Positions 12,050 to 27,982 are shown, counted from the stretch's first letter. The stretch: DNA of 34,692 nt from Chloroflexota bacterium (GCA_005879785.1 VBJV01000022.1:65749-100440); one strand, 5' to 3'. The notes: generated by a model from the letters alone, not told the origin. Translations and numbers: made by a program.

Positions 12050-13210
12050 ATGGAGCTCGAACTCGGCAGAGGCAAGCGGGCACGCCGGGCGTACGGGTTC
12101 GACGAGGTGGCGCTGGTCCCTGGTCGCATCACCATCAACCCCGACGAGATCGACATCTCAACGTCGATCGACGGCACGGGTCTGACGATCCCCTTCCTGG
12201 CCGCCGCGATGGACGGCGTCGTCGACACTGCGTTCGCTGCCGAGATGGGCAGGCTCGGCGGTCTGGCCGTCCTGAACCTCGACGGGGTGCAGACGCGCTA
12301 CGAGGATCCCTCCGGCGTGCTGCGTGAGATCGCCGATTCGCCACCCGACCAGGTCAACACGGTGTTGCAGCGCATCTACACCGCCCCGGTTCAGGACGGC
12401 CTCATCGGTCAGCGCATAGAAGAGGTGAAACGCTCCGGCGCGCCATGTGCGGTGTCGACCGTGCCCGGTATGGCGGAGCGGCGGGCGCCGATCGCCCAGG
12501 AGGCAGGCGCCGACGTTTTCGTGGTGCAGGGCACGGTGCTGACCGCTCGGCATCGCAGCAAGTCCTACCGCCACCTGTCGTTTCGAGAGCTCACGGAGTC
12601 GCTCGACATCCCGGTGATCGCGGGCAACTGCGTCGACTATGCGACCGCTCTGGAGCTGATGGACACCGGCATCAAGGGACTGCTCGTCGGAGTCGGACCG
12701 GGCGCCGCGTGCACGACGCGCGCGGTCCTTGGCGTCGGCGTGCCACAGGTCACCGCCACGAGTGATTGCGCCGCAGCGCGCGACGACCATCTGCGCCGCA
12801 GCGGTGACCGCGTGGCGATCATCACCGACGGGGGCATGCGTCTCGGCGGCGACATCGCCAAGGCTTTCGCCAGTGGCGCCGACGCGGTGATGATCGGCTC
12901 CATTTTCGCCGCGGCGCAGGAAGCCGCGGGACACGGCAACCACTGGGGCATGGCCACGCCGGATCCGAACCTGCCGCGCGGCACCCGGATCCGCACCGGA
13001 ACCAAGGGCACGCTGGCCGAGATCCTCTTCGGCCCGGCGCACGTCGATGACGGAAGCATGAACCTCGTCGGTGCGCTGAAGAGCGCCATGGGCGTCTGCG
13101 GCGCGCGCACCGTGCGCGAGTTCCAGGAGACCGAGATGGTGATCGCCCCGTCGATCAAGACCGAGGGCAAGATGCAGCAGCGCGAGCAGCGCGTGGGGAT
13201 GGGCGTGTGA
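12050..13210 (+). CDS. guaB3: GuaB3-family IMP dehydrogenase-related protein (no CBS domains)
   Basis: [49 protein letters not shown] with catalytic Cys, HWGMAT...LPRGTR; directly upstream of guaA. Confidence 0.9.
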
Positions 13211-14793
13211 CGGTTGCGACCGAGTTGGGCAGTGCGACGAACACGCCTGCCCGGGTCGCACAGGACACGGTGTTCGTCCTCGACTTCGGCTCGCAGTACA
13301 GCCAGTTGATCGCGCGCCGCGTGCGCGAGGCGAAGGTGTACTGCGAGCTCGTGCCCGGCTCGATTCCCGCCGCCGAGATCGCCGCGCGCGCGCCGCGCGG
13401 TTTGATCTTCAGCGGCGGCCCCGCATCGGTGTACGAGCCGGGAGCGCCCCACCCGGACCCCGATGTGTACAACCTCGACCTGCCCATCCTGGGTATCTGC
13501 TACGGGATGCAGTTGCTCGCCGGCGACCTCGGCGGTGCCGTCGAGCCGGCGCAGCGACGGGAGTACGGGCACGCGTCCCTGACCGTGGACGACGAGGCGG
13601 GCATCTTCGACCGGCTGCCACACGAACTGTCGGTGTGGATGTCGCACGGCGATGTGATCACTCGGCCGCCACCGGGCTTTCGCCCCATCGCACACTCGCT
13701 CAACTCACCGTGCGCGGCCATCGCCGGCCCGCGAGGTCGCTTCGGCATCCAGTTCCATCCCGAGGTCGCACACACTCCGCTCGGTCGTGACGTGCTGCGC
13801 AATTTCCTGCTCAATGTCTGCGGCTGTGCCGGCACCTGGGAGCCGGCATCCTTCATCGAGAGCGCGGTCGCGGACGTGCGCCGGCGCGTCGGCGACGCGC
13901 GGGTGCTGTGCGCACTGAGCGGAGGAGTCGATTCGGCGGTGGCGGCGACTCTCGTGCACCGCGCTGTCGGCGACCAGCTCGCGTGCGTGTTCGTCGACAA
14001 CGGCCTGCTGCGCCGTGGCGAGGGCGACCGCGTGGTCGAGATCATGTCCCGGCAACGCCACATCCGGCTCGTCCACGTCGATGCCGCGGAGCAGTTCCTC
14101 GACGCGCTGCAGGGTGTCACGGATCCCGAGGAGAAGCGCCGGCGGATCGGGCGCACCTTCATCCGGGTCTTCGAGGAGCAGGCGCGAGCGCTGGGGCAGG
14201 TGCCCTTTCTGGCGCAGGGAACGCTGTACCCCGACGTCATCGAGTCCACGTCGTATGACACCCAGCACGCCCAGAAGATCAAGACGCACCACAACGTCGG
14301 CGGACTGCCCGAGAACCTGCGCTTCGAGCTCGTGGAACCGCTGCGCTACCTGTTCAAGGACGAGGCGCGCGAGGTCGGCATCGCGCTGGGACTGCCCGAA
14401 GACCTGGTGTGGCGCCAGCCGTTCCCCGGTCCGGGATTGGCCATTCGCATCGTCGGCGACGTGACCCGCGAACGGCTCGAGACGCTGCGCGCCGCCGACT
14501 GGGTGGTTATCGACGAGATCAAACGCAGCGGTCTGTACCGCAAGGTCTGGCAGTCCTTCGCGATCCTGACGCCGATCTCTTCAGTGGGTGTCATGGGTGA
14601 TTACCGCACGTACGCCAACGTCGTCGCGGTGCGCATCGTCGAGAGCGACGATGGCATGACCGCCGATTGGGCGAAGGTGCCGTACGACGTCCTCGGCACC
14701 ATCAGCCGGCGCATCGTCAACGAGGTTCCCGGAGTGAACCGCGTGGTCTACGACATCTCGTCGAAGCCGCCATCGACGATCGAGTGGGAATGA
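13207..14793 (+). CDS. guaA: GMP synthase (glutamine-hydrolysing)
   Basis: [67 protein letters not shown]. Confidence 0.97.
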
Positions 14794-14814
14794 GCGCTCA
14801 GACAAATCTGGTGA

Positions 14815-15009
14815 GGATGGGGAGGACGGCGCGGCGAGGGACCACGCGGTCGGAGCCCCGCTGGCGCACCTCACCCCACGAAGTCCGCACCCGACCACCG
14901 CGACTTCGTGGGGACCCCGAATCCGCCGCTGACTCTCGGCTCGACCTCCGCTCCGAGCCGTGCCGTCTCGCCTCCGAGACGATCCCTCGCTGCACCGTCC
15001 TCCCCATCC
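14815..15009. repeat. 195-nt cruciform element with 27-bp terminal inverted repeats (REP/MITE-like or structured RNA)
   Basis: Arms 14815-14841 and 14983-15009 match at 25/27. Internal perfect stems: 14874-85/14902-13 (12 bp), 14937-43/14954-60 and 14964-70/14975-81. Confidence 0.75.
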
Positions 15010-15096
15010 CCTAGACGTGCTGGTGGTCACTCATTTCCCTGAGTTCTCTTCGGAGCTTTCTAGTCGCACGACCACGCTCCCGATACCCTTGGCGGC

Positions 15097-16354
15097 GTGA
15101 TGCGCCTTCTCATCGTCGGCGGCGGAGGGCGGGAGCACGCGCTCGCCTGGGCATGCCGGCGCGAGCGCACCGACATCGAGGTCATCTGCGCGCCTGGCAA
15201 CGGGGGAACGGCAGTCATCGCGGAGAACGTCACGATCGACGTCACCGACGCGCGCACCATCGCGCGAATCGCGGCCGAGCGTGAGGTCGACCTCGTCGTC
15301 GTCGGGCCCGATGCCGCGGTCGCGGCGGGTGTCGCGGATGCGTGCGCCGCGCGGAACATCCCGGCCTTCGGGCCGACCGCCGCCGCCGGCCGCATCGAAT
15401 CCTCGAAATCGTTCGGCAAAGTCCTGATGGACGAGGCCGGCATACCGACCGCACGCTGGTTGAGCGGCACCGCCGATCAGCGCGACGCGCTGCTCGCCTT
15501 CGCCGAGGATCTCGGCGGCGCATGCGCTGTGAAGGCAGACGGCCTGGCTCTCGGCAAGGGCGTGGTCATGTGCGAAACGCTCGACGACGTGCACGGGGCG
15601 CTGCGCGCCTGCTTCGACACCGCGCGTTTCGGCGCTGCGGGCAGCCGCGTGGTCGTCGAGGAACAGCTCACGGGTACGGAGGCATCGGTGCTGGCACTGA
15701 GCGACGGTCACCGGCTGCGCCTGCTGACGCCCGCCCGCGACTACAAGCGCGCGCTCGACGGAGACGGGCGCATGCGCGCCGCCGCCCGACATCGACGCAC
15801 ACGGTCTGACCGACCAGGCAGCGCGCAAGGTGCTGCAGCCGTGCGTCGACGCGCTGCGCGCCCGCGGCACGCCCTTCGTCGGGTGCCTGTACGCAGGACT
15901 CATGCTCACCGGCGATGGCATCCGTGTGCTGGAGTTCAACGCCCGGTTCGGTGACCCGGAGGCGCAGGTGGTGCTGCCGCTGCTCGACGAACCGCTGGCG
16001 GAGGTGCTCCGCGACTGCGCGCGCGGCGAGGTCGCGCCGGGAGTGGCCGTCACGTCCGGCGCCGCCGTCGGCGTGGTGGCCGCTGCGGCTGGATATCCTG
16101 GCGAGGTGCGCATCGGCGACCGCATCGAGGGCCTGGACACGATCGACGCGCGCGCTCTCTGCTTTCATGCCGGCACGCGTCGCGCACCCGACGGGACGGT
16201 GCGCACATCCGGTGGCCGCGTGCTCTGCGTCGTGGCGCGCGCTCCGCAGCTCGAAGAGGCGCGCTCGGCCGCGTACGAGAACGTCGCGCGCATCACCTTC
16301 GCCGGCATGCAGCGGCGCGGCGACATCGCGCAGCGGGTCGGAGTCACTGCGTGA
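15097..16354 (+). pseudogene. purD: Phosphoribosylamine-glycine ligase, frameshifted at about 15766 (may be an assembly error)
   Basis: GGGGREHALAW, APGNGG, IESSK, VKADGLALGKGV, DYKRALDGD in one frame; GACAP...GCLYAGLM, LEFNARFGDPE, FHAGT, TSGGRV in the next frame. The GPNTGGM motif is absent at the junction. Confidence 0.9.
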
Positions 16355-16860
16355 GCGCAGCGCTTCTCGTGGGCATCGTGGTCGGCAGCGAGTCTGACCT
16401 GCCCGCGATGCGACGCTGTGGCGAGGTGCTCGACGAGTACGGCATCGGCTGGGAGATGGGTGTGATGTCGGCGCATCGCGCGCCCGACGTCGTGAGTGGG
16501 TATGCACGTGCGGCGCGGTCGCGCGGCCTGCGCGTGCTCGTGGCCGGCGCCGGCGCGGCCGCGCACCTGCCCGGGGTCCTGGCCTCCATGACGACACTGC
16601 CGGTGATCGGGGTGCCCCTGGCCGCAACCCCGCTGGCCGGCCTCGACGCGCTGCTCAGCATCGTGCAGATGCCGCCCGGCACACCGGTGGCCACCGTGGC
16701 GGTGGGCGAGATGGGGGCGCGCAACGCCGGCCATCTGGCGGCCCAGATCGTGGCCCTCGACGACGCCGACGTGGAAGGGGCGCTCGGCCGGGTTCGCGCG
16801 CGCATGCGTGAAAGCGTCCAGTTGCCCGAGGGATTCGACCCCTCCGGAGCCGGCGACTAG
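16351..16860 (+). CDS. purE: N5-carboxyaminoimidazole ribonucleotide mutase (class I PurE)
   Basis: GSESD, SAHR, AGAGAAAHLPG, PVIGVP, LLSIVQMPPGTPVATV. Confidence 0.96.
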   Translation: MSAALLVGIVVGSESDLPAMRRCGEVLDEYGIGWEMGVMSAHRAPDVVSGYARAARSRGLRVLVAGAGAAAHLPGVLASMTTLPVIGVPLAATPLAGLDALLSIVQMPPGTPVATVAVGEMGARNAGHLAAQIVALDDADVEGALGRVRARMRESVQLPEGFDPSGAGD

Positions 16861-16904
16861 CGCAGATGCACGAAACCTCGGCTCCGCGACACTAGACTCG
16901 CGCG

Positions 16905-18698
16905 ATGCCTCGCCTCGAACTGGTGGAGACGTCGCTCCGCCTCGGGCAGCAGTCGCTCCTGATCAGCCGTCTGCGCCAGCGGCACGCTGTGCCGGTCGCC
17001 GAGCGCCTCGACCGCTGCGGATTCGCCGCGCTCGACGTCTTCGGCGGCTCGACGTTCGAGGCCTCCCTGCGCTTTCTGGCTGAGGACCCCTTCGAGCGGC
17101 TGCGCGCGATCCGCGCCGCGGCTCCGATCACGCCGCTGCTCGCCATGATCGGCGGGCAGGCGCTCGTCGGTCACCGCCACGTCTCCGACGACACCGTCGA
17201 CGCCTTCATCGCCGCCGCAGCCGAAGCGGGCGTGGACATCTTCCGCTGTTACGACCCCCTCAACGACACCCGCAACCTGGAGCGCTGCGCAGAGGCGGTG
17301 GCGCGCGCCGGCAAACAGGCCGAAGGAGTCATCGTCTACAACGACGCCGCGGACGGTGACATCCTGGTCGCCGCCGCGCGGCGGCTGGTCGAGATCGGAT
17401 TTCCGACGCTGTGCGTGCACGACCCCCTCGGTGTCCTGGTGGCCAGCCGCGCCGCCGAGACCGTGAGTGCAGTGCGTGCGGCTGCCGGCGTGCCGGTGGC
17501 GATATCGATCGCTGCGCAGACCGGACAGGCGACGCTGGCGGCGTACAGCGCGGCTCTGGCCGGGGCTCACCGCATCGACGTGGCGCTGTCGCCGCTGGCG
17601 GGTGGCGCGTCGGTACCCGCAGCCGAAGCGGTCATCGCCGGCTTCGCAGGAAGCCCGGTCGACCCGGGCCTCGATATCGAGCCCATCGCAGCAGCCGCGC
17701 TGGAGCTGGAGCAGGCGCTCGTGCACTACGCGGACGTGCTCGACCCACTGGCGCTGCGGCTCGACACCTCGGCGCTGCGTGGTCTGCTGCCGCCCTCCGC
17801 GATGGGGCACGCCCTGGCCGAGCTGCGCGCCCGCGACGCGCTTGCGAAGCTGGGCGAGGTCGAGGCTGAGGTGGTACGCGTCCGGGCCGAGCTTGGCTCG
17901 CCGCCTATGGTCACCCCGCTCACCGAGATCATCGCCACCCAGGCTGTCTACAACGTCTGCAACGGCGATCGCTACGCGACGGTGAGCCAGGAGGTGAAGG
18001 ATTACTGCCTCGGCCTGTACGGCGAGCCGCCGAAGCCGGTCGATCCTGAGATCCGGCGGCTGGTCAACGGCCGCGAGGAGCCGATCACCTGCAGGCCCGC
18101 CGATCTCCTGGAGCGATCCATCGCCGCGACGCGGCGCGAGCTCAAACGTGAGGGCCTGGCCGATGCGGCCGCGGCTGCCGTGGTCACGTACGCGCTGTTC
18201 CCAGCCGAATACCTCGCGCTCGTGCGCGGCGAGAGCGCCGCGGAGCAGCTCGGCGATGAGGCCGTTCCCCAGGGTGAAGCGCCCGTGGGCGTTCCCGAGA
18301 CCGCGATCGTCGACGAGCCTGCGGTGGCGCCAACTGTTGACGGCGCCGAGCCGGCCGTGGCCGCGCGCGAGCTCACCGTTGAGGTCGACGGCCAGTCGTA
18401 CGCGGTGCGGGTCATCGGGCTGCCCGAGGCGAGCGGTGCGAGCGGGGTGGCCGCCGCCATGCCCGCCGGGCCGCCCCCGGTGCGCGAAGGTACGGTGGTC
18501 GCTCCGATGCAGGGCTTGCTGCTCAAGGTTTCTGTCAAAGTTGGCGACAAGGTGAACCTGGGGGACGTGGTGGCGGTCCTCGAGGCGATGAAGATGCAGA
18601 ACGACATCACCGCTACCCGTTCGGGAACGGTCACCGAGGTATACGTGAAGGCCGGCGACGTGGTCAGCCCCCGCGATCCGCTTGTGCACGTCGGATAG
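16905..18698 (+). CDS. Pyruvate carboxylase subunit B / oxaloacetate decarboxylase alpha-like protein with a degenerate carboxyltransferase active site and an intact biotinyl domain
   Basis: GGSTFEASLRFLAEDP, DPLNDTRNL, PMVTP, TCRPADLL and the C-terminal APMQG...LEAMKMQN biotin site. The catalytic RD, KD and HxH motifs are substituted. Confidence 0.88.
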   Translation: MPRLELVETSLRLGQQSLLISRLRQRHAVPVAERLDRCGFAALDVFGGSTFEASLRFLAEDPFERLRAIRAAAPITPLLAMIGGQALVGHRHVSDDTVDAFIAAAAEAGVDIFRCYDPLNDTRNLERCAEAVARAGKQAEGVIVYNDAADGDILVAAARRLVEIGFPTLCVHDPLGVLVASRAAETVSAVRAAAGVPVAISIAAQTGQATLAAYSAALAGAHRIDVALSPLAGGASVPAAEAVIAGFAGSPVDPGLDIEPIAAAALELEQALVHYADVLDPLALRLDTSALRGLLPPSAMGHALAELRARDALAKLGEVEAEVVRVRAELGSPPMVTPLTEIIATQAVYNVCNGDRYATVSQEVKDYCLGLYGEPPKPVDPEIRRLVNGREEPITCRPADLLERSIAATRRELKREGLADAAAAAVVTYALFPAEYLALVRGESAAEQLGDEAVPQGEAPVGVPETAIVDEPAVAPTVDGAEPAVAARELTVEVDGQSYAVRVIGLPEASGASGVAAAMPAGPPPVREGTVVAPMQGLLLKVSVKVGDKVNLGDVVAVLEAMKMQNDITATRSGTVTEVYVKAGDVVSPRDPLVHVG

Positions 18699-18708
18699 CA
18701 CGGCCGCG

Positions 18709-20151
18709 ATGTTCGACACGGTGCTCGTGGCCAATCGCGGCGAGATCGCGCTGCGCGTGGTCCGCGGATGCCGCGACCTGGGCGTCCGCAGCGTCGCCGC
18801 GTACAGCGAGGCCGACCGCGACGCTGCGTTCGTGCGGCTGGCCGACGAGTCCGTCGAGATCGGTCCGGCGCCGTCGTCACAGTCCTACCTGGTGGCAGAG
18901 CGCATCATCGACGCGGCGCAGCGAACCGGAGCGCAGGCGATCCACCCGGGCTACGGGTTCCTGAGCGAGAACCAATCGTTCGCGCACGCATGCCGCTCGG
19001 CAGGCATCGTGTTCATCGGGCCGCCGCCCGAGGCGATGGCGGCGATGGGCGAGAAGGTGGCTGCCCGCGAGCGCATGCGGCGATCCGGAGTGCCCGTCGT
19101 CCCCGGCACGGATGCGCTGAGCGGCGCTGACGAGGCAGTGGCCGCCGCGAACGACGTCGGCTATCCGGTGCTGATCAAGGCGAGCGCGGGCGGCGGTGGC
19201 ATCGGCATGCGGATCGCGCGTGACGAGCGCGAGCTGCGAGAGGGTTTCGAGACGGCGCGAAGCACAGCGGCGCGAGCCTTCGGCAACGACACCATCTTCC
19301 TGGAGCGCTACGTCGACGAGCCCCGTCACATCGAGATCCAGGTGCTCGCCGACACGCACGGCGCCGTGATCCATCTGGGCGAACGCGAATGCTCCGTGCA
19401 GCGGCGGCATCAGAAGATCATCGAGGAGACGCCGTCGCCGGTCATCGACGCCGAACAGCGGCAGCGCATGGGTGAGGCGGCGGTGACCGCGGCGCGGGCG
19501 GTCGGCTACGTCAACGCTGGCACCGTCGAGTTCATCTACAGCCGGGGCGAGTTCTTCTTCCTGGAGATGAACACCCGCCTGCAGGTCGAGCACCCGGTGA
19601 CCGAGCTCGTGTACGGCGTCGACCTCGTCGCCGAGCAGCTGCGCATCGCCGCGGGCGAGCCGTTGAGCCTCACCCAGGATGCGATATCGCCGCGTGGGCA
19701 TGCCATCGAGTGCCGTGTCAACGCCGAGAACTACGCGAAGGGGTTCCTTCCGTCGCCGGGGCGGGTCACCGGCTACCACGAGCCGTCCGGTCCGGGGGTG
19801 CGCGTGGACAGCGCGCTGACCGGACCTGGCGTGATCTCGCCGCACTACGACCCGCTGGTGGCCAAGCTCATCGTGCACGGCGAGTCGCGTGCTGCCGCCA
19901 TCGAACGCATGCGGCGTGCGCTGCTCGAGTACATCGTCGTGGGCATCCGCACCAACATTCCGTACCACCTCGCCGTGATGTCCGACACGGACTTCCGCGC
20001 CGGCAGCTACACGACGCATTTCATCGACGAGCATCCGCAGCTGGTCGCGGACGCCGACGCATGGGCGGAGCGGCAGGCGGCGCTGCGAAGCCTCGTGCGC
20101 GACCCGGCACGGGCCGCGGCGATCGCGGCCGCGGTTGCCGTGTCCGTGTAG
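18709..20151 (+). CDS. accC: Biotin carboxylase (PycA/AccC-like)
   Basis: VLVANRGEIA, HPGYGFLSEN, KASAGGGGIGM, ERECSVQRRHQK, FLEMNTRLQVEHPVTE, ECRVNAE, YDPLVAK; C-terminal AAAIAAAV helix like two-subunit pyruvate carboxylase A chains. Confidence 0.93.
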   Translation: MFDTVLVANRGEIALRVVRGCRDLGVRSVAAYSEADRDAAFVRLADESVEIGPAPSSQSYLVAERIIDAAQRTGAQAIHPGYGFLSENQSFAHACRSAGIVFIGPPPEAMAAMGEKVAARERMRRSGVPVVPGTDALSGADEAVAAANDVGYPVLIKASAGGGGIGMRIARDERELREGFETARSTAARAFGNDTIFLERYVDEPRHIEIQVLADTHGAVIHLGERECSVQRRHQKIIEETPSPVIDAEQRQRMGEAAVTAARAVGYVNAGTVEFIYSRGEFFFLEMNTRLQVEHPVTELVYGVDLVAEQLRIAAGEPLSLTQDAISPRGHAIECRVNAENYAKGFLPSPGRVTGYHEPSGPGVRVDSALTGPGVISPHYDPLVAKLIVHGESRAAAIERMRRALLEYIVVGIRTNIPYHLAVMSDTDFRAGSYTTHFIDEHPQLVADADAWAERQAALRSLVRDPARAAAIAAAVAVSV

Positions 20152-20155
20152 TTGC

Positions 20156-20926
20156 GTGGCCGCGCCCCGTTTCGGGCGCCTGTACGCGTCCGCGGTGCTG
20201 CGTCCGTTCGCCGAGCAGCTCATCCAGGAGACCGGCCTCCGGGACGGCAGCGTCGCGTGTGACCTGCTCTGCGACGGCGGAGCGCTGAGCGGCGCGCTCG
20301 CCGCAGCGGTCGGCCGCGGCAGCCTGGTTGTCAGCGACGTCGATTCGGCGCTGGTCGAATCCGTGGCGCGAGACCTCGCCGCCGCGAGGTGCTCGGTGCG
20401 CGGCGTGGCCTGCGACGGCCAGACCCTGCCGATGGAGAGCGCGTCATGCGACTGCGTCGCGTCGCTGTTCACCATCGGCTTCGGCGACGGGGACGCCCTC
20501 ATGCTCGAGGCGCTGCGCGTGACGCGCCCGGGCGGCACCGTGATGATGGTGCACTGGGATGCCGATGCGCTGCCAGCGCACGAGGACGCGCTGGCCGCCG
20601 CGCTCATCGAGGTCACCGGGACGCGCACCGCGTTCTTCGACCACATCGCGCCGCGCCTGCAGCTGCCGCGCGGGGCGTCCGTGAGCCGGCTTGCCGATCT
20701 GGTGCGCTTCGATGGAATCCAGCACTATTGGAATGCGATGGTGATCGAGCGAAACTTTGGCGACGAGCAGCGGCCTGTCTCGGACGACGAACTGGCATCG
20801 GTCAGAGCAATCTGCGAAGCGCGGCTGGCGCCGTACACCGCCGCCGACGGCACCATGCGCATCCCCGTAGAAGCCGCGCTTGTGCGAATGACTGCGCAAG
20901 CCGAACCTTATGATGCGTGCGCGTGA
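20156..20926 (+). CDS. Class I SAM-dependent methyltransferase-like protein with degenerate motif I
   Basis: RPFAEQL, ACDLLCDGG (motif I position), VVSDVD, CDGQTLPM..SCDCV, EALRVTRPGG; GTG 4 nt after the biotin carboxylase stop. Confidence 0.7.
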   Translation: MAAPRFGRLYASAVLRPFAEQLIQETGLRDGSVACDLLCDGGALSGALAAAVGRGSLVVSDVDSALVESVARDLAAARCSVRGVACDGQTLPMESASCDCVASLFTIGFGDGDALMLEALRVTRPGGTVMMVHWDADALPAHEDALAAALIEVTGTRTAFFDHIAPRLQLPRGASVSRLADLVRFDGIQHYWNAMVIERNFGDEQRPVSDDELASVRAICEARLAPYTAADGTMRIPVEAALVRMTAQAEPYDACA

Positions 20927-21021
20927 GCTCGAAAGACGGTGATGAGACCGACGAAGACAGTCACGCCGACTTCTACTTCGAAGGGGGCGAGCGCCGCTGG
21001 CGTTGGCCCCCCCCGACCTGA
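20923..21021 (+). CDS. Putative 32-aa small protein MSSKDGDETDEDSHADFYFEGGERRWRWPPPT
   Basis: GTGA overlap with the methyltransferase stop; TATGAT 8 nt upstream; fills the intergenic gap; own translation. Confidence 0.45.
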   Translation: MSSKDGDETDEDSHADFYFEGGERRWRWPPPT

Positions 21022-21034
21022 GAGGCGTAGGCGC

Positions 21035-23269
21035 CTAGAAGGCGACGGTGGCCGAGAAGGCCGCGGCGAGCGCCTGCCCGTCGATGTCGCGCAGCGCGGT
21101 GCTCACCGCGACCCGCAGCGGTCCGGCCGGCAACGAGGCAAGCGTGACCGTGGCGGTGCGCGAGCTGGTGTCGTATGTCGTGGATATGGGGGTGGCGACA
21201 CCGGACGCGGATGTCACGCTGATGGCGCCGGGAACGCTGCTCGCGTCGAGGTCGCTGTCGAAGCTGATCTGCAGCGTGAAGGCGCCGGTGGCGCTGCTGC
21301 TCACGCGCACGACGTGCGGCCCCGACGACTGGTCGTGCAGCGACGTCGTGTCGATGTCGACCACGAGGTACGTGGACCCGTCGGTCGAGGGCGACAGCGC
21401 GAGCCGCTCATCGGCGACCGACGCGGTGCTGTGATGCCCGGTTGGGTCGACGATCAGCTCGACGGTGGCATTCACCGTGCCGTCCGACGATGCCGAGACG
21501 CTCACGATGTACGCGCGGCTGAGGCGGTGCGGCGCGCGCGCCGAGGCGTCGACGCCGGGGCCGCTGAGCGCGGTCAGCGCCTTGCGGTCGCCACGGACCT
21601 GCGCATCGACGAACGCGTCGAGCGTGGAGCTCGCCGCGGCCGGGGCAGCCAAGCGCGCCGCCGCACTCGACCCGGGGATCATGCCCCGCTCGACCTGGGC
21701 CCCCGACGGCGTGGAGGCGATGAAACCGAAACCGCCGCCGGACGGCGCGAAGGCTGGAGCGCTTCCCGCCGGGCTCACCGCCAGGGGGGCGCCCGAAGGC
21801 AGCTGGGCAACGACCAGCTGCGCCGCGCCCGTCGATGCGGAGAGCACGTACGCAACCTCAGTGCCGTCGACGTTGAGCGCCACGTCACTGGTGGGCGCGC
21901 TCGGGTCGAGCGTCGACACGCTCGCGGGCGTGTCCCGGTCGACGGGCTCGGTGACCAGGCGGGATCCAGCGCCGCCGGCGTCGATCCACGCAACCGTGCG
22001 TCCGTCGGCGCTGAACGCCACGCCGCCGGCGGTAACGCCGCTCAGCAGCCGGCTGGTGCCTGCAGCGATGTTCAGCAGCTGTCCCCCGCCGGTCGACCCC
22101 GGGGCCGCCACGAACGCGTAGCCGCTGCTGGACAGCGCATCGACCTCACCCGATGCGGTCGGCAGGGTCAGCAGGATTCGCTGGTGGCCGGAAAGCTGGA
22201 CCGACTTGATGGCGTCGCCGTCGGCGAAGATCAGCCGCTCGTTCGACGTCCACGCCAGTGCCGTGACCGTGGTGGCGGCCTGCCCCAGCACGGTCGTGCC
22301 GCCGCCGTTCGACGCCGCCACCTCGATGAGCGAGCCACCGTCGGGGTTGGGAACCGCCATGGCCAGGAGGCTCCCTGCCGGCGCGAAGGCGAGCGCTGTG
22401 GCGGAGGGCCCGCGTACAACGGGCGCACCGCCGCCGGCCGGGAAGTCGATGACCGCGGGAATGCTGACGCCGAGCTGGCCGGCGGCGGCCGGCGACGCGC
22501 TCGGGCTGCTCGGCCGAGGCGGCGGCGACGCCTCGACGGTGGCGGCAGGCAGCAGCCCCGACGAGACCGCGACCGCGCCGTCGGGCGCCACCACGACCGA
22601 CGCGCCGGTCTCCGCTGAGCCGAGCGCTGCCGCGGCCAGTCGCGGCGGGATCGGAGTGCTCGGGCCCGGTGGTGGCGTGGGCGCGGTGCCGAAGGTGATC
22701 TGGATCGGCGCGGCGGCGGTGGCGCCCGACGACGCGCGGATGGAGGGCTGGGCGATGGTCACCGTGTACGGGGTGTTACCGACGAGATGGTGGACCGGCG
22801 TGATGACCAGCTTGTTGCCCCGCCACGAGTAGTTGACCGTGGTGGCCGGCTGGATGTGAACGCCCTTCTCGACAGCCTGGTGGTTCATGGGCTGGTTGAA
22901 CGCCACGGTGATCACATCGGCTGGGCTGACCGCGTGCTGCGCGGCGACGTTGGAGCTGGCAAAGAGGTTCTGGTGGTCCTGGGTGTGGCCGAACAGCAGC
23001 GAAACCACGGCGGCTGCGACGGCCACGACACCGACCGCAGCGCCGCTCCATGCTGCGTGGGCCGGGCCCACGCGCCACCAGGCCCGGCGCCGGCGCAGGG
23101 ACCGCTCGGCCTCGGCCATGAGATGACCGCGCAGCTGGTGACGGAAGTGCGGGTCAGCCTCCGCCAGCGGCCGCGAGGTGTGCAGCAGCCGCGCCGTGTC
23201 GGCGAGCTCGGGCTGATCGCGGAAGAGGTCCTCGAGCTCCGGGTCGAGCCAGCCGTCGAGGCGTGGCAT
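21035..23269 (-). CDS. Putative membrane anti-sigma factor with extracellular Ig-like (Big_5) and beta-propeller domains
   Basis: TGATG coupling to the ECF sigma; cytoplasmic N-terminus (DPHFRHQLRGHL), one TM helix, ITVAFNQPM...TPYTVTI Ig-like domain, AFAPAG/AFSADG/AFAPSG propeller repeats, C-terminal ISFDSDLD...ALRDIDGQAL Ig-like domain. Confidence 0.8.
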   Translation of the reverse strand: MPRLDGWLDPELEDLFRDQPELADTARLLHTSRPLAEADPHFRHQLRGHLMAEAERSLRRRRAWWRVGPAHAAWSGAAVGVVAVAAAVVSLLFGHTQDHQNLFASSNVAAQHAVSPADVITVAFNQPMNHQAVEKGVHIQPATTVNYSWRGNKLVITPVHHLVGNTPYTVTIAQPSIRASSGATAAAPIQITFGTAPTPPPGPSTPIPPRLAAAALGSAETGASVVVAPDGAVAVSSGLLPAATVEASPPPRPSSPSASPAAAGQLGVSIPAVIDFPAGGGAPVVRGPSATALAFAPAGSLLAMAVPNPDGGSLIEVAASNGGGTTVLGQAATTVTALAWTSNERLIFADGDAIKSVQLSGHQRILLTLPTASGEVDALSSSGYAFVAAPGSTGGGQLLNIAAGTSRLLSGVTAGGVAFSADGRTVAWIDAGGAGSRLVTEPVDRDTPASVSTLDPSAPTSDVALNVDGTEVAYVLSASTGAAQLVVAQLPSGAPLAVSPAGSAPAFAPSGGGFGFIASTPSGAQVERGMIPGSSAAARLAAPAAASSTLDAFVDAQVRGDRKALTALSGPGVDASARAPHRLSRAYIVSVSASSDGTVNATVELIVDPTGHHSTASVADERLALSPSTDGSTYLVVDIDTTSLHDQSSGPHVVRVSSSATGAFTLQISFDSDLDASSVPGAISVTSASGVATPISTTYDTSSRTATVTLASLPAGPLRVAVSTALRDIDGQALAAAFSATVAF

Positions 23270-23832
23270 CAGGCCTCCTCCTCGACGAGGGTCACGATGC
23301 CCAGACGCTGGCGCACGCCGATCATGCCGCGGTGGATGAGCAGCTTCACTGCCCCTTCGCTCTTGCCCATGATCCGGCCGATCTGCGCCAGCTTGAGGTC
23401 CTCGCCGAGCTTGAGGGTCATCGCCATGCGCTGCTGCGGCGGCAGCGAGTCGATCGCCGCCCACACTCGCTCGGCCTCCGAGCTGTCGACCACCCGTTCG
23501 ACCACCGGGCGTGCCGGGTCGGCGACGCCCACGGCGCCGTCGAGGCTCGACGTCGGCCGGCGGCTGCGGTAGTGGTCATAGATCGCATTCACGCTTATCT
23601 GATACAGCCACGCGCTGAAAGGATGGCCCGACGACCGGTACCGGCCGATGGCGCGCAGCGCTTTGAAGAACACCTCAGACGTGACGTCCTCGGCGGCGTC
23701 CTGGTCGCGCACGCGGCTATACACAAACCGGTAGATTTGAGAGAAATAGTGGTCGTAGAGCTCTCCGAATGCATCGGCGTCCGACTTGGCACGCTCGACA
23801 AGCTGTTCTTCGTACGCCCGAGGCAGGCTCAT
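23269..23832 (-). CDS. ECF-family RNA polymerase sigma-70 factor
   Basis: AFGELYDHY, AEDVTSEVF, FSAWLYQI (region 2); LPPQQR...IGRIMGKSEGAVKLLIHRG (region 4). Confidence 0.94.
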   Translation of the reverse strand: MSLPRAYEEQLVERAKSDADAFGELYDHYFSQIYRFVYSRVRDQDAAEDVTSEVFFKALRAIGRYRSSGHPFSAWLYQISVNAIYDHYRSRRPTSSLDGAVGVADPARPVVERVVDSSEAERVWAAIDSLPPQQRMAMTLKLGEDLKLAQIGRIMGKSEGAVKLLIHRGMIGVRQRLGIVTLVEEEA

Positions 23833-23862
23833 CCAGCGAACTCGGGCCGCACTTGACCGGGG

Positions 23863-23888
23863 AACGTGGGGCCCGCTCGGGCAGTTAC
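23863..23888 (-). promoter_or_regulatory. Candidate autoregulatory ECF promoter GTAAC-N17-CGTT
   Basis: Minus strand GTAAC (23888-23884), 17 nt, CGTT (23866-23863), 30 nt upstream of the sigma ATG; fits the AAC...CGT pattern of ECF promoters. Confidence 0.6.
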
Positions 23889-23905
23889 GTTCGACGCGGC
23901 CTCGT

Positions 23906-24712
23906 TCATCCGACCGGACGCCGCCTCGAATCGTGAAGACGGCGCCTGACCGCCATCGCTGCGCCGGGCAGGTCGGTGATGATGCCGGCCACCCTCGGGT
24001 CGCCGAGGTACCTGCGCATCCGGGCCACGCCGTTCACCGTCCACACGACAACGGGCACCCCGCGGCGTTGAGCGGCATCGAGCACGCCACGCTGGCGGCG
24101 CGCGCGCGCCGGCGGCGGCGGCGCCAGGAGCTGGTGGGGCACGATGAAGTCGGCGCCGCACTCCTCCGCCCATTCGACCGGAAGGCTTTCGAGCCTGCGG
24201 CTGCGGGCCACCATCCGGGTCGGTCCGAGCAGCAGCCCGCAGCGCACGGCTGGGTTCAGCGTCTTCACTGTCGTGATCACTCCTCCGTGAAAGGATGTGA
24301 TCAGAAGCCAGTCGAGACGAGTGCGTCTCGCGGCCATCTCCAGGACTGCGGCCTCGCAGCCGCGCTCTTTGATCTCGACATTGACGGCGATGTGACCGCT
24401 GCAGAGGCGGAACACCGCCTCCAGCGTCGGCGGCTCGTGTCGGCAGCGGCGTACCAGCTCCGCGTAGGTGAGCTGCGCGACGGGCACACGGTGCCGGGTG
24501 GCGCTGTGATGGATGACCAGCGTGCCGTCGAGCGTGCGGCGGACGTCGAGCTCGACAGCGTCCGCGCCCTGGCGTATGGCCTCGGTGAACGATGCCAGCG
24601 AGTTTCCCGGCGCGTAACGTGACGCGCCGCGATGGCCGATGATCAGCGGGCCCTCGCTGCCTGCGATCAGGGGGCCGGCTCCGACGTGGATGTACCGTGT
24701 GGCGACCGTCAC
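23906..24712 (-). CDS. Glycerophosphodiester phosphodiesterase family protein
   Basis: IIGHRGAS, NSLASF, VELDVRRTLDG, NVEIK, ITSF, VWTVN, GIITDLP. Start estimated at GTG 24712. Confidence 0.88.
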   Translation of the reverse strand: MTVATRYIHVGAGPLIAGSEGPLIIGHRGASRYAPGNSLASFTEAIRQGADAVELDVRRTLDGTLVIHHSATRHRVPVAQLTYAELVRRCRHEPPTLEAVFRLCSGHIAVNVEIKERGCEAAVLEMAARRTRLDWLLITSFHGGVITTVKTLNPAVRCGLLLGPTRMVARSRRLESLPVEWAEECGADFIVPHQLLAPPPPARARRQRGVLDAAQRRGVPVVVWTVNGVARMRRYLGDPRVAGIITDLPGAAMAVRRRLHDSRRRPVG

Positions 24713-24748
24713 CGGTGGCCCAGCTTGCCACGGATAGAATGAAACGAG

Positions 24749-26113
24749 GTGATCCCTCGGTACGCCCCGCCCGAGATCGCGGCGATCTTCAGCGACGAGT
24801 CGCGGCTGCAGGGGTGGCTGAATGTCGAGCTGCTGGCGTGCGAGGGCTGGACGACGGTCGGACGCATCCCGACCAGCGCGCTGGCGGCCTTGCGCACCGC
24901 GCGTATCGATCCTGACCGCATCGCCGAGCTGGAAGCCGAGCAGGGGCACGATGTCGCGGCCTTCGTAGCCGCAGTCCAGGAAACCGTCGGTGAAGCAGGT
25001 CGATTCCTGCACCTCGGTTTGACGTCATCCGACGTTGTCGACACGGCGCTGGGCAAGCAGCTGCGCGACGCTGCCGTGGTCATCGACAGAGACGCCGGGT
25101 TGCTTGAAGCCGCCCTCGTCGAGCAGGCCGAGCGTCATCGCTTGACGGTGATGATCGGGCGCACACACGGCGTGCACGCCGAGCCGATCACGCTGGGCGT
25201 GAAGCTTGCCAACTTCGTCGACGAGGTGCGCCGGGCGCGCCGCCGTCTGGCCGCGGCCACTGCCGACGTCGCGGTGGGCAAGCTCACCGGCGCAGTGGGC
25301 ACGCATGCGAGCGTGCCGCCGGAGGTGGAGGAGCACGTGTGCCGCGGTCTCGGCCTGGAGGTTGCTCAGGTCACGACGCAGGTGGTCGCCCGGGACCGCC
25401 ACGCGGCGTTCGTGTGCGCGCTGGCACTGCTCGGCGCGGTGCTCGAACGCCTGGCAACGACGGTGCGTCTGCTGCAGATCACGGAGGTCGGCGAGGCCGA
25501 GGAGCCGTTCAGCGAGCGGCAGAAGGGCTCGTCCGCGATGCCGCACAAGCGCAACCCCGTGCTGTGTGAGCGTATCTGCGGCCTGGCCAGGACCATCCGC
25601 GGGTATGCCGCGACGGCGATGGAGAACGTCGCTCTCTGGCACGAGCGCGACATCTCGCACTCGTCTGCCGAACGCGTGATCCTGCCCGATGCATGCGCCC
25701 TGACCGATCACATACTCCGCCTGAGCACGCGCATCGTCGCCGGACTCAATGTCGACGCCGCGCGCATGCGAGAGAACCTCGAGCGTGACGGCGGTATCGT
25801 CTTCTCGCAGGCGGTGATGACCGCTCTGGTGACCGAGGCGGGCTGGCCACGCGAGCGCGCGTACCGAGCTGTGCAGGCGCTGACGGCGCGCGCGCGCGCC
25901 GGCGAGGGCGGCTTTCGAGACCTGGTGCGCGCCGACGCCGACATCAGCGCCGCGCTCAGCTCCGCGTCGCTGGCGCGCTGCTTCTCTGTGGATGCATACA
26001 CGGCCAGCGTCGACGAGACGTATCGGCGCCTCGGGCTGGCCACGACGCCACGCGGCTCGGGCGCGGCGTCACCGCCTCACCGTGTCGAGGCAGTCGCACG
26101 GGGGGCGGCGTGA
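24749..26113 (+). CDS. purB: Adenylosuccinate lyase
   Basis: MIPRY, HDVAAF, HLGLTSSDVVDT, GRTHGVHAEP, GSSAMPHKRNP, WHERDISHSSAER. Confidence 0.97.
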   Translation: MIPRYAPPEIAAIFSDESRLQGWLNVELLACEGWTTVGRIPTSALAALRTARIDPDRIAELEAEQGHDVAAFVAAVQETVGEAGRFLHLGLTSSDVVDTALGKQLRDAAVVIDRDAGLLEAALVEQAERHRLTVMIGRTHGVHAEPITLGVKLANFVDEVRRARRRLAAATADVAVGKLTGAVGTHASVPPEVEEHVCRGLGLEVAQVTTQVVARDRHAAFVCALALLGAVLERLATTVRLLQITEVGEAEEPFSERQKGSSAMPHKRNPVLCERICGLARTIRGYAATAMENVALWHERDISHSSAERVILPDACALTDHILRLSTRIVAGLNVDAARMRENLERDGGIVFSQAVMTALVTEAGWPRERAYRAVQALTARARAGEGGFRDLVRADADISAALSSASLARCFSVDAYTASVDETYRRLGLATTPRGSGAASPPHRVEAVARGAA

Positions 26114-26997
26114 CCACGAGCGCGCTGAGCAGCGCCGAGGTGGAGGGTCTCCAGCTCTTTCGCCGCGGCAAGGTCCGCGACACGTTCCAGCTGGCCGACG
26201 GCACGCTGCTCATGGTCGCGACCGATCGCATCAGCGCCTTCGACGTGGTGCTGCCCACGCCGATCCCCGGCAAGGGCAGGGTGCTCACCCAGATGTCGCG
26301 CTGGTGGTTCGAGCAGACGCACAGCGTCGTGCCCAACCACCTCATCAGCGACGCCGAGGATGTGATGCCCGAAGCAGTGCGCGACACCTGGCGTGAACGC
26401 TGCATGCACGTTGCGCGCGCGCAGCGCATCGATATCGAGTGCGTCGTGCGCGGTTTCATCAGCGGCTCCGGCTGGAAGGAGTACCGGGAGCACGGCACGC
26501 TCGCAGGAGAACCGCTTCCCGCCGGACTGCGCGAGTCATCGCGGCTGACCGCGCCGCACTTCACCCCCGCGGTCAAACGCGATGACGGCCACGACGTCAA
26601 CATCTCGCGCGCGCAGCTGCGCGACCTGATGGGCGCCGAGCTTGCCGCGCGTCTCGAGTCGGCATCGATCAACCTGTTCGATCTGGCCACAGCGCGATGC
26701 GAGAGCGCGGGCATCTACCTCGCCGACACCAAGTTCGAGTTCGGCTTCGTCGCCGGGACGCTGACGTTGATCGACGAGGTGCTCACGCCCGACTCGTCGC
26801 GCTTCTGGAACATCTCCGAGTGGCGAGAAGGCGAGACCCCACCCTCGTTCGACAAGCAGTTCGTGCGTGACCACCTGGAGACGCTCGACTGGGACAAGAC
26901 ACCGCCTGGGCCTGAGCTCCCCGACGACGTGGTGCAGGGCACCGCGGCGCGATATCGCGAGGCGGCGCAACGCATCTGCGGAATCACCGCGACGTGA
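26110..26997 (+). CDS. purC: SAICAR synthase
   Basis: RGKVRD, TDRISAFD, IPGKG, ECVVRG, ADTKFEFG, DEVLTPDSSRFW, SFDKQFVRD. Confidence 0.97.
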   Translation: MTTSALSSAEVEGLQLFRRGKVRDTFQLADGTLLMVATDRISAFDVVLPTPIPGKGRVLTQMSRWWFEQTHSVVPNHLISDAEDVMPEAVRDTWRERCMHVARAQRIDIECVVRGFISGSGWKEYREHGTLAGEPLPAGLRESSRLTAPHFTPAVKRDDGHDVNISRAQLRDLMGAELAARLESASINLFDLATARCESAGIYLADTKFEFGFVAGTLTLIDEVLTPDSSRFWNISEWREGETPPSFDKQFVRDHLETLDWDKTPPGPELPDDVVQGTAARYREAAQRICGITAT

Positions 26998-27257
26998 CCT
27001 GGTCCGCCGAGGTCATCGTCTCGCTCAAGCCCGTGGTCAACGACCCCCAGGGCCTGGTGGTGCGCGACGGTCTGCGCCAGCTTGGGTTCGACGGCGTGCG
27101 CGCCGCTCGGGTCGGCAAGCACATCGTGCTCGAGGTCGATGCCGAAGATGAGCACAGTGCACGCGAACTGGTGTCACGCATGTGCGAGACGCTGCTGCGC
27201 AACCCGGTGATCGAGGACCACCGCATCAGCAGCCTGCGCCGGCTCGAGGACGGCTAG
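26994..27257 (+). CDS. purS: FGAM synthase subunit PurS
   Basis: LKPVVNDPQG, RVGK, MCETLLRNPVIED; between purC and purQ. Confidence 0.95.
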   Translation: MTWSAEVIVSLKPVVNDPQGLVVRDGLRQLGFDGVRAARVGKHIVLEVDAEDEHSARELVSRMCETLLRNPVIEDHRISSLRRLEDG

Positions 27258-27264
27258 TGCCCTG

Positions 27265-27978
27265 ATGCGATTCGGTATCGCGGTGTTCCCCGGGACTTGG
27301 TCGGATCGTGACTGCGCGCGCGCGGTGACCCTGGCCGGCCATGAGCCGGTGATGCTCTGGCACAAGGACCGCGATGTGAAAGATGCCGACTGCGTCATTC
27401 TCCCCGGTGGGTTCTCGTACGGCGATTACCTGCGCTGCGGCGCCGTGGCGCGCTTCGCCCCGCTCATGGACGCGGTTACCGAGTTCGCAGCCCACGGTGG
27501 GCTCGTCTGGGGCATCTGCAACGGCTTTCAGATCCTGTGTGAGGCCCACCTGCTGCCCGGCGCGCTGAGCCGCAACCAGTCGCTCCAGTTTCGCTGCGAA
27601 CCCGCCTACCTGCGCGTTGAGACGACCGTCTCGCCGTTCACCTCCGGGTGCACCCAGGGAGACGTTCTGCAGATCCCCGTGTCGCACGGTGAGGGGCGCT
27701 ACGTTGCCGATGATGAGACCCTCGACATGCTCGAACGTGATGGCCGCGTCGCTCTTCGCTACGTGGCCGCCGACGGCTCCGCCGTCGGCGCGCGCTCGCC
27801 AAACGGGTCGATGCGCGACATCGCCGGCGTGCTCAACCAGGGGCACAACGTGCTGGGCATGATGCCGCACCCCGAGCGGGCCAGCGAGGCGTTGCTCGGC
27901 TCCGATGACGGCATGCGCCTCTTCGAGAGCGTGTCGCACGCCGTCCGCCACGGCGATTCCTTCGCCAACATCTGGTGA
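27265..27978 (+). CDS. purQ: FGAM synthase glutaminase subunit PurQ
   Basis: VFPG, LPGGFSYGDYLRCG, GICNGFQIL, HGEG, PNGS, GMMPHPER. Confidence 0.97.
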   Translation: MRFGIAVFPGTWSDRDCARAVTLAGHEPVMLWHKDRDVKDADCVILPGGFSYGDYLRCGAVARFAPLMDAVTEFAAHGGLVWGICNGFQILCEAHLLPGALSRNQSLQFRCEPAYLRVETTVSPFTSGCTQGDVLQIPVSHGEGRYVADDETLDMLERDGRVALRYVAADGSAVGARSPNGSMRDIAGVLNQGHNVLGMMPHPERASEALLGSDDGMRLFESVSHAVRHGDSFANIW

Positions 27979-27982
27979 TGTG

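Follow-up and report, generated by a model that had tools for sequence, protein, structure and literature searches.

The window analyzed here is a 34,692-nt stretch of DNA (GCA_005879785.1 VBJV01000022.1:65749-100440) with a GC content of ∼0.70; all coordinates are counted from its first letter, and its named relatives are metagenome-assembled genomes (MAGs) of Candidatus Dormibacterota. The subject of this study is a gene pair on the plus strand, in which a gene for a protein resembling pyruvate carboxylase (PC) subunit B and oxaloacetate decarboxylase alpha (PycB/OadA-like, hereafter the PycB-like protein) is followed by a gene for a biotin carboxylase (BC). The pair, the domains of the first protein and the residues found at the positions of the canonical carboxyltransferase (CT) site are as follows:

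16905..18698, plus strand: PycB/OadA-like protein of 597 amino acid residues (Pfam, NCBIfam, PDB alignments, AlphaFold2 model)
Residues 4-264: HMGL-like TIM barrel (Pfam)
Residues 306-500: PYC_OADA domain (Pfam)
Residues 487-502: conserved beta-hairpin VRELTVEVDGQSYxVRV (43-sequence alignment A1)
Residues 530-595: biotinyl domain (Pfam)
16941..16943, plus strand: Leu13 at the position of the metal-ligand Asp, LRDxHQS being replaced by LRLGQQS (PDB alignments)
17151..17153, plus strand: Gly83 at the position of the substrate-binding Arg, LLRGQN being replaced by MIGGQA (PDB alignments)
17418..17426, plus strand: His172-Asp173-Pro174 in place of Lys-Asp-Met, IKDMxG with the carbamylated Lys being replaced by VHDPLG (PDB alignments)
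17505..17513, plus strand: Ser201-Ile-Ala203 in place of the His-x-His metal ligands (PDB alignments)
17790..17804, plus strand: PPSAM in place of PGGM(I/L), with PPSA at residues 297-300 (PDB alignments)
17913..17915, plus strand: Thr337 of VTP, kept, at the place of Thr882 of R. etli PC (PDB alignments)
18591..18593, plus strand: Lys563 of EAMKM (residues 560-564), predicted biotinylation site (EAMKM in 120/120 homologues)
18682..20151, plus strand: BC of the PycA/AccC type, 489 amino acid residues, its first 17 nt overlapping the end of the PycB-like gene (TIGR00514, PDB matches)

Domain architecture and active site of the PycB-like protein

The architecture of the family, namely an HMGL-like TIM barrel, a PYC_OADA domain and a C-terminal biotinyl domain, was present in the PycB-like protein, with Pfam scores of 42.9 bits for HMGL-like (PF00682), 102.9 bits for PYC_OADA (PF02436) and 64.5 bits for Biotin_lipoyl (PF00364). 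When PDB chains were searched with phmmer, residues 3-595 were matched to 5KS8_C (E = 2.7e-107), and matches to OadA 2NX9 (E = 2.5e-80) and transcarboxylase 5S (E = 9.4e-65) were also obtained, which bears out the full-length likeness to PycB/OadA claimed in an initial annotation of this DNA. In the AlphaFold2 model, built from 43 sequences (mean predicted local distance difference test score of 73), the barrel core was well formed, and its nearest solved fold was again 5KS8_C (Foldseek E = 1.3e-42). The full-length domain model NF006761 of NCBIfam (PycB) was passed with 481.3 bits (cut-off 402). All equivalog models of the oadA, PycB, 5S and PC set were failed, as seen for oadA TIGR01108 (439.7 bits vs 756.5), PycB NF010645 (321.3 vs 1182), NF008984 (268.9 vs 827) and NF009554 (247.6 vs 965). 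Homologues are publicly annotated as ‘pyruvate carboxylase subunit B’. Contigs from four public soil runs (DNA) matched the gene without differing letters (for example, 17109-18602 in run X1 and 15777-17140 in run X2), and the best-matching run may be the source sample.

According to the alignments with 5KS8, 2NX9 and 1S3H, the divalent-metal site of the family (Asp, carbamylated Lys and His-x-His) is absent from the PycB-like protein, in which Leu13, His172, Ser201 and Ala203 occupy these positions, and the Arg for the substrate carboxylate is missing as well. The catalytic Thr of VTP(T/S)SQ was present (Thr337) and invariant in alignment A1, and Gln85 was kept although the neighboring Arg had become Gly83. 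Ser49 aligned with the position mutated in 1S3H, the A59T entry of 5S. In the PC and 5S literature, four of these residues (Asp, Lys and both His) are metal ligands, and the Arg binds the substrate. These residues, plus GG and the Thr, were identical across the 41 canonical representatives compared. The Thr is described as essential in R. etli PC, where the Thr882Ala substitution is reported to abolish CT activity (PMC5895798). With regard to the AccB/biotin carboxyl carrier protein (BCCP) family, a biotinyl-Lys in the (A/S)MKM motif was found inside the biotinyl domain.

The comparison by phmmer with OadA, PycB and transcarboxylase 5S had been suggested in the initial annotation, and all of the substitutions listed there (LRLGQQS, MIGGQA, VHDPLG, SIA and PPSA) were recovered in the alignments to 5KS8, 2NX9 and 5S; the VTP threonine, EAMKM and the partner BC, described there as intact, were indeed so (Thr337, Lys563 and a pass of TIGR00514). 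At the level of sequence, then, the CT site of the PycB-like protein is dismantled, and neither pyruvate carboxylation nor oxaloacetate decarboxylation via the known metal-dependent mechanism would be expected of it.

The best match in both sequence and fold, chain C of 5KS8 (PycB of Methylobacillus flagellatus), likewise combines a CT barrel, a PYC_OADA/BT-like region and a BCCP domain, and has a separate BC subunit encoded adjacent to it. It differs in that the metal ligands, the substrate Arg and PGGM are replaced in the window protein, whose HMGL-like match reaches only 42.9 bits. OadA 2NX9 and transcarboxylase 5S (1RQB) share a homologous CT barrel and PYC_OADA domain; the window protein departs from OadA by failing TIGR01108, by the loss of the active-site residues and by the lack of OadB (PF03977), which was found in 0/41 genomes of the class, including G000, the MAG from which the window comes. 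A Na+-pumping oxaloacetate decarboxylase was rejected as a candidate on the ground of this missing OadB.

The partner BC scored 647.4 bits against the accC model TIGR00514 (cut-off 626.5). Its best PDB matches were BC structures (E = 1e-160), and the alignments take in the GGGG-x-GM, ERECSxQRRHQK and EMNTRLQVEHPVTE stretches. The BC gene was located directly 3′ of the PycB-like gene in 53/55 related loci, and the remaining two loci end inside the gene.

Conservation and history of the altered site

The homologues compared were the best 120 of 446 matches (62-100% identity, Candidatus Dormibacterota). None of the 113 homologues with a residue aligned to position 13 had Asp, the position being variable among relatives (His, Ala, Leu, Gln, Ser or Trp), and position 83 was Gly or Ala in most relatives. 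His stood at the Lys position (172) in 115/120 (0.96), Ser at position 201 in nearly all, and EAMKM was kept in every one of the 120. Among 63 columns conserved at ≥90% in the 41 canonical proteins, 35 were kept in the close homologues, 16 had changed to a new residue that is itself conserved at ≥90%, and 12 were variable, including positions 13, 83 and 203 (occupied in canonical proteins by Asp, Arg and the second His, respectively).

Selection was estimated by the Nei-Gojobori method from 42 orthologues, for which 837 of 861 pairs had a dS of 0.15-1.2. The median dN/dS was lowest in the BCCP domain (0.16) and the barrel (0.17), followed by PYC_OADA (0.23) and the linker (0.35); these values come from non-independent pairs and from a dS that is possibly underestimated at the GC content of the window. 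The dead-site state, as read from these alignments, is conserved under purifying selection and is not one of decay, which is excluded because dN/dS is ∼0.2 and a single copy is retained in 60/60 high-quality genomes. Conservation of the substitutions under purifying selection had been proposed as a check in the initial annotation, and close homologues with the catalytic residues beside a neutrally evolving copy had been named as the outcome that would speak against it; both were looked at, and the losses proved common to all of the best 120 of 446 homologues, together with the low median of the barrel.

The distribution of the protein was determined by six-frame hidden Markov model (HMM) scans of genomes that are mostly MAGs. 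A PycB-like/PYC_OADA protein was found in 13/13 genomes of the class within the phylum sample, and PYC_OADA was found in 78/81 class genomes, including all 60 of high quality, with one copy each; the exception to the single copy is G044, in which one gene is split across two contig ends. The families of the class are referred to by the labels of the genome collection used (f1, f2, f3, f4 and f40), the window genome belonging to f1. The state of the site in each was as follows:

f4: Asp, Arg, Lys, both His and Thr kept in 10/10; PGGM reads P(E/A)WM
f3: Thr replaced by Ala in 20/20, of which 19 keep the five other residues
f2: Lys replaced by Glu and Thr by Ala in 13/13
f40: Asp, Lys and the second His absent in 3/3
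f1: Asp, Lys and the second His absent in 12/12, with Arg and the first His kept in one sub-clade

In a quick IQ-TREE tree (LG+G4, 39 rows), the class formed one clade (support 99), in which f4 branched first, f2, f3 and f1+f40 were placed together (91) and f1+f40 formed a clade (100); a FastTree tree of 86 rows agreed with it. Based on the differing site states of the families and on this branching, the canonical function would have been lost in different ways in several branches, with the protein kept everywhere. In the syntenic PycB proteins of f2 and f3 (loci L091-L096 and L149-L175), Ala occupies the position of the essential Thr; f3 keeps the metal ligands, and f2 also has Glu at the carbamyl-Lys position. 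The f2 and f3 proteins are probably no pyruvate carboxylases either. For the idea that the f3-type proteins are 2-oxoglutarate carboxylases, NCBIfam and the literature offered no discriminating model. In four f1 genomes, the PycB-like gene and the BC gene lie 3.8-8 kb apart, with unrelated genes between them.

A wider comparison was made with the 150 best representatives at 50% identity, many of which are PycB/OadA-like biotin proteins that deviate from the canonical site. One deviant clade belongs, by its source names, to Gaiellales/Gaiellaceae (clusters P0185, P0205 and P0221; loci L189-L201 and L213), and its annotations disagree with each other (OadA, ‘biotin/lipoyl-containing protein’, ‘ACC biotin carboxyl carrier protein’ and hypothetical, ACC standing for acetyl-CoA carboxylase). 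In 9/9 metagenomic loci and 34 cluster members of this clade, Asp was replaced by Leu, Lys by His (or Leu), HxH by Y.Q and Thr by Ala, Ser or Gln, and EAMKL was kept; the changes of Lys to His and Met to Pro (‘HDP’) are also found there, having arisen independently. In the IQ-TREE tree, the clade fell inside another canonical subgroup (support 100), and forcing it and the Dormibacterota clade into one origin cost 49.6 log-likelihood units (p = 0.022 in the approximately unbiased test), the group for this test having been chosen after the first tree was seen. On these trees, the site loss in Gaiellales is independent of that in Dormibacterota.

The BC gene was directly 3′ of the Gaiellales PycB-like gene in 7/7 loci with downstream DNA. 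The neighborhood was scanned at two loci, L213, with the order aroC-aroKB-aroQ-pepP-efp-(PycB-like-BC)-Asp23-polyprenyl synthase-FtsJ-..-recN, and L189, with the order pepP-DUF1361-(PycB-like-BC)-polyprenyl synthase-FtsJ-NAD kinase-recN; aroC-aroKB-aroQ and efp lie upstream in L213 only. This neighborhood presumably matches the accB-accC gene order of Bacillus. The Gaiellales ‘OadA/BCCP’ proteins therefore resemble the window protein in their architecture, in similar losses (including Lys to His and Met to Pro), in the kept biotin site and in the BC directly downstream, and differ from it in their independent origin, in keeping the Arg and losing the Thr, and in an aro-pepP-efp ... recN neighborhood in place of a pur one. 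Further non-canonical sites were seen among the best 150 representatives in the biotin proteins P0201/P0216, P0158/P0193, P0157/P0161, P0178/P0231, P0156 and P0240, and one cluster of these, named ‘biotin/lipoyl-containing protein’, is from Desulfoluna spongiiphila. Degenerate sites seem to be recurrent in the PycB/OadA family as sampled here.

Inventory of biotin-dependent genes and a possible carrier role

Genes for BC (counted by PF02785), biotin carriers and CTs were inventoried by six-frame HMM scans of MAGs. Exactly one BC was found in 15/19 f1, 5/5 f40, 21/23 f2 and 21/23 f3 genomes (62/70 together), and at least two were found in 11/11 f4 genomes; the single-BC counts include genomes flagged as unpublished (G140 and G156 in f1, G174 in f40 and G190 in f2), without which they are 13/17, 4/4 and 20/22. 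Wherever the locus was fetched (f1, f40, f2 and f3), the single BC was the one associated with PycB. In the complete chromosome G001, the sole BC was the PycB-adjacent one, and the biotin proteins were the PycB-like protein and an ∼80-residue ELMKM protein only, the other five PF00364 matches having lipoyl-type motifs. The same chromosome encodes fabH-accD-accA, a PccB-like CT beside methylmalonyl-CoA mutase, an MccB-like CT beside an HMGL-like gene, and a fourth CT.

Canonical AccB (TIGR00531) was over the cut-off in 0/41 class genomes, and the highest-scoring TIGR00531 row shown for G000 was the C-terminus of the PycB-like protein itself. BirA was over the cut-off in 19/21 f1 genomes, including G000. 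Phosphoenolpyruvate (PEP) carboxylase and/or malic enzyme were found in relatives, so that a loss of pyruvate carboxylase would be tolerable. A search for another accB or accC had been recommended in the initial annotation, and its outcome (no canonical AccB, and one BC in 62/70 genomes) spoke for that annotation, with the caveat of a second BC-BCCP fragment in the MAG of the window (contig C236, see below). The orphan CTs that were to be sought were found in relatives: in addition to fabH-accD-accA, a PccB-like CT is encoded next to methylmalonyl-CoA mutase and an MccB-like one next to HMG-CoA lyase. In most of these genomes, AccA/AccD and the PccB- and MccB-type CTs stand without an alpha subunit, canonical AccB or other BC.

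The window protein is like AccB in its biotinyl domain with an MKM motif, in a gene lying directly upstream of the BC gene (as accB-accC in E. coli K-12) and in occurring in genomes with accA/accD and without canonical accB. It is unlike AccB in its length of 597 residues, most notably in carrying an extensive, dead CT module instead of the short N-terminal region of AccB, and in its whole-protein TIGR00531 score of 43.5 (cut-off 115.2); its function as an ACC carrier is a proposal drawn from the comparison. A precedent for an unusual BCCP supply in the same phylum is the acetyl-CoA carboxylase of C. aurantiacus, reported to contain a fused BC-BCCP (BC1, PDB 8HZ4) and, in that account, to work without a classical AccB (PMC11077971). 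Residues 480-588 of the PycB-like protein were matched to 8HZ4_E (E = 4.5e-14) and the window BC to 8HZ4_A (E = 8e-158). The carrier described for C. aurantiacus is fused to BC, whereas that of the window protein is fused to a dead carboxyltransferase.

The interpretation preferred here, which we hold with about as much confidence as doubt, is that a pseudo-carboxyltransferase has been kept as a BC-docking biotin carrier that would feed separate CTs. The observations are the loss of the site, purifying selection on the gene, its retention throughout the class and the BC, BCCP and CT genes counted in the genomes. The remainder of the protein (the fold of the TIM barrel, the PYC_OADA/BT-like region, whose hairpin is invariant, and the biotinyl domain) is retained under strong purifying selection, as is the downstream BC. 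The gene descends from pycB, which encodes the beta subunit of pyruvate carboxylases of the two-subunit type. Lys563 would be biotinylated by BirA, BC would dock on the PycB-like scaffold and carboxylate the Lys563-biotin with ATP and bicarbonate, and the carboxybiotin would be spent at AccA/AccD (encoded beside fabH) and at CTs of the PccB and MccB types rather than at the dead barrel, so that the net role may be that of an AccB-like carrier and a BC-organizing pseudoenzyme. A repurposed protein passing carboxybiotin to a separate carboxyltransferase was already suggested in the initial annotation; the shared losses, the purifying selection, the orphan CTs, the sole BC and the Gaiellales clade, all of them comparative evidence, argue for it. 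In a search of the literature on pyruvate carboxylase or acetyl-CoA carboxylase of Dormibacterota/Dormibacteria, no paper on a dead PycB-like protein was found.

Several points weigh against this carrier role. G000, which is 75% complete, contains a second BC, a C-terminal fragment fused to a BCCP (EAMKM) at the start of the 4.4-kb contig C236 (1-609), and the sole-BC argument therefore fails for the window's own MAG; the f1 genomes G086, G136 and G148 have 2-4 BCs, yet the dead PycB is kept. The link between the BC number and the state of the site rests on few evolutionary events, and the BC counts rest on six-frame HMM scans of MAGs. A small biotin protein could serve other CTs without the PycB-like protein. 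A barrel at a dN/dS of 0.17 is not obviously needed by a pure carrier, and the newly fixed pocket residues (His172, Ser201, Gln205, Pro297 and Glu341), the retained Thr337 and the low barrel dN/dS hint that some ligand binding or catalysis may remain. Among the 20 public runs found for the PycB-like gene, moreover, none was an RNA run.

Regarding the additional carriers, the BC-BCCP of C236 resembles the fused type described for Chloroflexus, and most sampled f1 genomes, with one BC match, appear to be without such a second BC. The very small biotin protein (∼70-80 residues, ESMKM/ELMKM) was located at C307:5060-5236 in G000 and at L126:3388-3561 in G001. On C307 it lies directly after genes for a PccB-like CT and enoyl-CoA hydratase, and the equivalent cluster of f4 also has its own BC.

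Adjoining genes and alternative explanations

Two genes flank the pair on the same strand:

16351..16860, plus strand: purE, 44 nt upstream of the PycB-like gene (TIGR01162, N5-carboxyaminoimidazole ribonucleotide (N5-CAIR) mutase, 171.7 bits vs a cut-off of 149.6)
20135..20926, plus strand: class I S-adenosylmethionine-dependent methyltransferase of 263 amino acid residues, overlapping the BC stop by 17 nt (Pfam/NCBIfam)

The methyltransferase gene was 3′ of BC in f1 loci only and was found in none of the f2, f3 and f4 loci examined; searches of PDB, NCBIfam and the ESM Atlas gave generic class I methyltransferase matches only, with no informative relatives. The order of the pur supercluster is guaB3-guaA-purD-purE-(PycB-like-BC-methyltransferase)-(Big_5 gene, minus strand)-orf-purB-purC-purS-purQ-purL-purF. 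In some relatives, unrelated genes lie between purE and the PycB-like gene, namely an ice-binding-like protein and RidA in one and a nitronate monooxygenase-like protein and a histidine kinase in another (L024:4779-5675 and L018:2711-6151). The purD gene (15097-16354) is in two frames with a break near 15765; one contig of run X1 (depth ∼6) has 23 extra bases behind 15765 that would restore the single reading frame seen in all relatives, and for this reason the frameshift looks like an assembly or strain deletion and not like a dead gene.

It is conceivable, if rather doubtful, that the barrel has been neofunctionalized. Its remodeled, metal-free pocket would then bind either a different acceptor, for a novel carboxyl transfer, or a metabolite by which BC/BCCP is gated, as in an allosteric sensor, and the protein would be an enzyme or a sensor and more than a carrier. 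The 16 of 63 canonically invariant columns with new residues conserved at ≥90% (Lys to His172, Met to Pro174, His to Ser201, Gly to Pro297, Gln to Glu341 and others) would fit such a role, as would a mean conservation of 0.93 at the canonically invariant barrel columns compared with 0.83 over all barrel columns. Thr337, moreover, was kept in f1 and lost in f2 and f3, the ‘HDP’ changes of Lys to His and Met to Pro arose independently in Gaiellales, and the f1-specific methyltransferase gene overlaps the BC stop. However, the Asp, Arg and second-His positions vary freely (His/Ala/Leu/Gln, Gly/Ala/Arg and Ser/Ala/Val/Thr, respectively), which is unlike the prediction for a defined new catalytic constellation, and the close relationship of the f1 set (62-100% identity) gives ‘90% conserved’ a limited power. 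The gene context offers no candidate substrate, and the methyltransferase, a generic class I enzyme, has no informative relatives.

The purine genes suggest another function, a replacement of PurK, in which BC and the PycB-like protein would make N5-CAIR or deliver CO2 to aminoimidazole ribonucleotide (AIR) for a class I PurE; this appears improbable to us. PurK and BC are homologous ATP-grasp N-carboxylases. The gene pair lies inside the pur supercluster (12050-31615), PurE passes the N5-CAIR mutase model, and purK was over the cut-off in 0/4 relatives (including the complete chromosome) and in 0/13 class genomes. The same synteny was nevertheless found in f4, where the PycB site is canonical, so that the adjacency to purE predates the site loss, and in several f1 genomes unrelated genes separate purE from the PycB-like gene. 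In addition, no purK was over the cut-off in 94/121 sampled genomes of the phylum, most of them without the PycB-like protein; in 4/4 purK-positive relatives examined, purK was upstream of purE and not in the PycB slot; and the dead clade of Gaiellales has no pur context. Archaea that combine a class I-like PurE with a lack of purK are reported, and the lack is attributed there to CO2 supply (PMC3261824). The BC of the window scored 26.8 bits against TIGR01161 (PurK; cut-off 318.4). In the 121-genome phylum sample, purK and PycB matches never co-occurred, save for one weak match of 29% identity. This pattern was given no weight, as it tracks few deep clades and PycB is canonical in the other lineages. 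The wider form of this idea, in which the remodeled barrel would be a new metal-free acceptor site that, together with BC, carboxylates AIR via carboxybiotin for PurE, and dead-CT PycBs would be recurrent, unrecognized carboxybiotin hubs with a ligand site of their own, is likewise a long shot.

That the protein is still a subunit of pyruvate carboxylase or oxaloacetate decarboxylase with unusual residues, or else a decaying relic, is scarcely credible: the public annotation ‘pyruvate carboxylase subunit B’, the pass of NF006761 (481 vs 402) and the intact Thr337 and partner BC speak for an enzyme, but none of the four metal ligands is left, the substrate Arg is missing too, every equivalog model was failed (oadA 440 vs 756.5; PycB NF010645 321 vs 1182), OadB was found in 0/41 genomes and PEP carboxylase and/or malic enzyme occur in relatives, and a relic would not fit a dN/dS of ∼0.2 and single-copy retention in 60/60 high-quality genomes.

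The names ‘pyruvate carboxylase subunit B’ and ‘oxaloacetate decarboxylase alpha’ are given to these proteins in databases, and with such names, metabolic reconstructions would falsely attribute anaplerotic pyruvate carboxylation to Candidatus Dormibacterota and Gaiellales, both of which are abundant in soil. If the interpretation as a BC-docking biotin carrier is true, a whole bacterial class would run the carboxylation of acetyl-CoA, propionyl-CoA and methylcrotonyl-CoA from a single BC. A catalytic subunit would then have been demoted to a carrier or scaffold pseudoenzyme and kept as such for a very long time, and this demotion would have happened at least twice independently, which would provide a natural test of the sharing of a BCCP domain among different carboxyltransferases.

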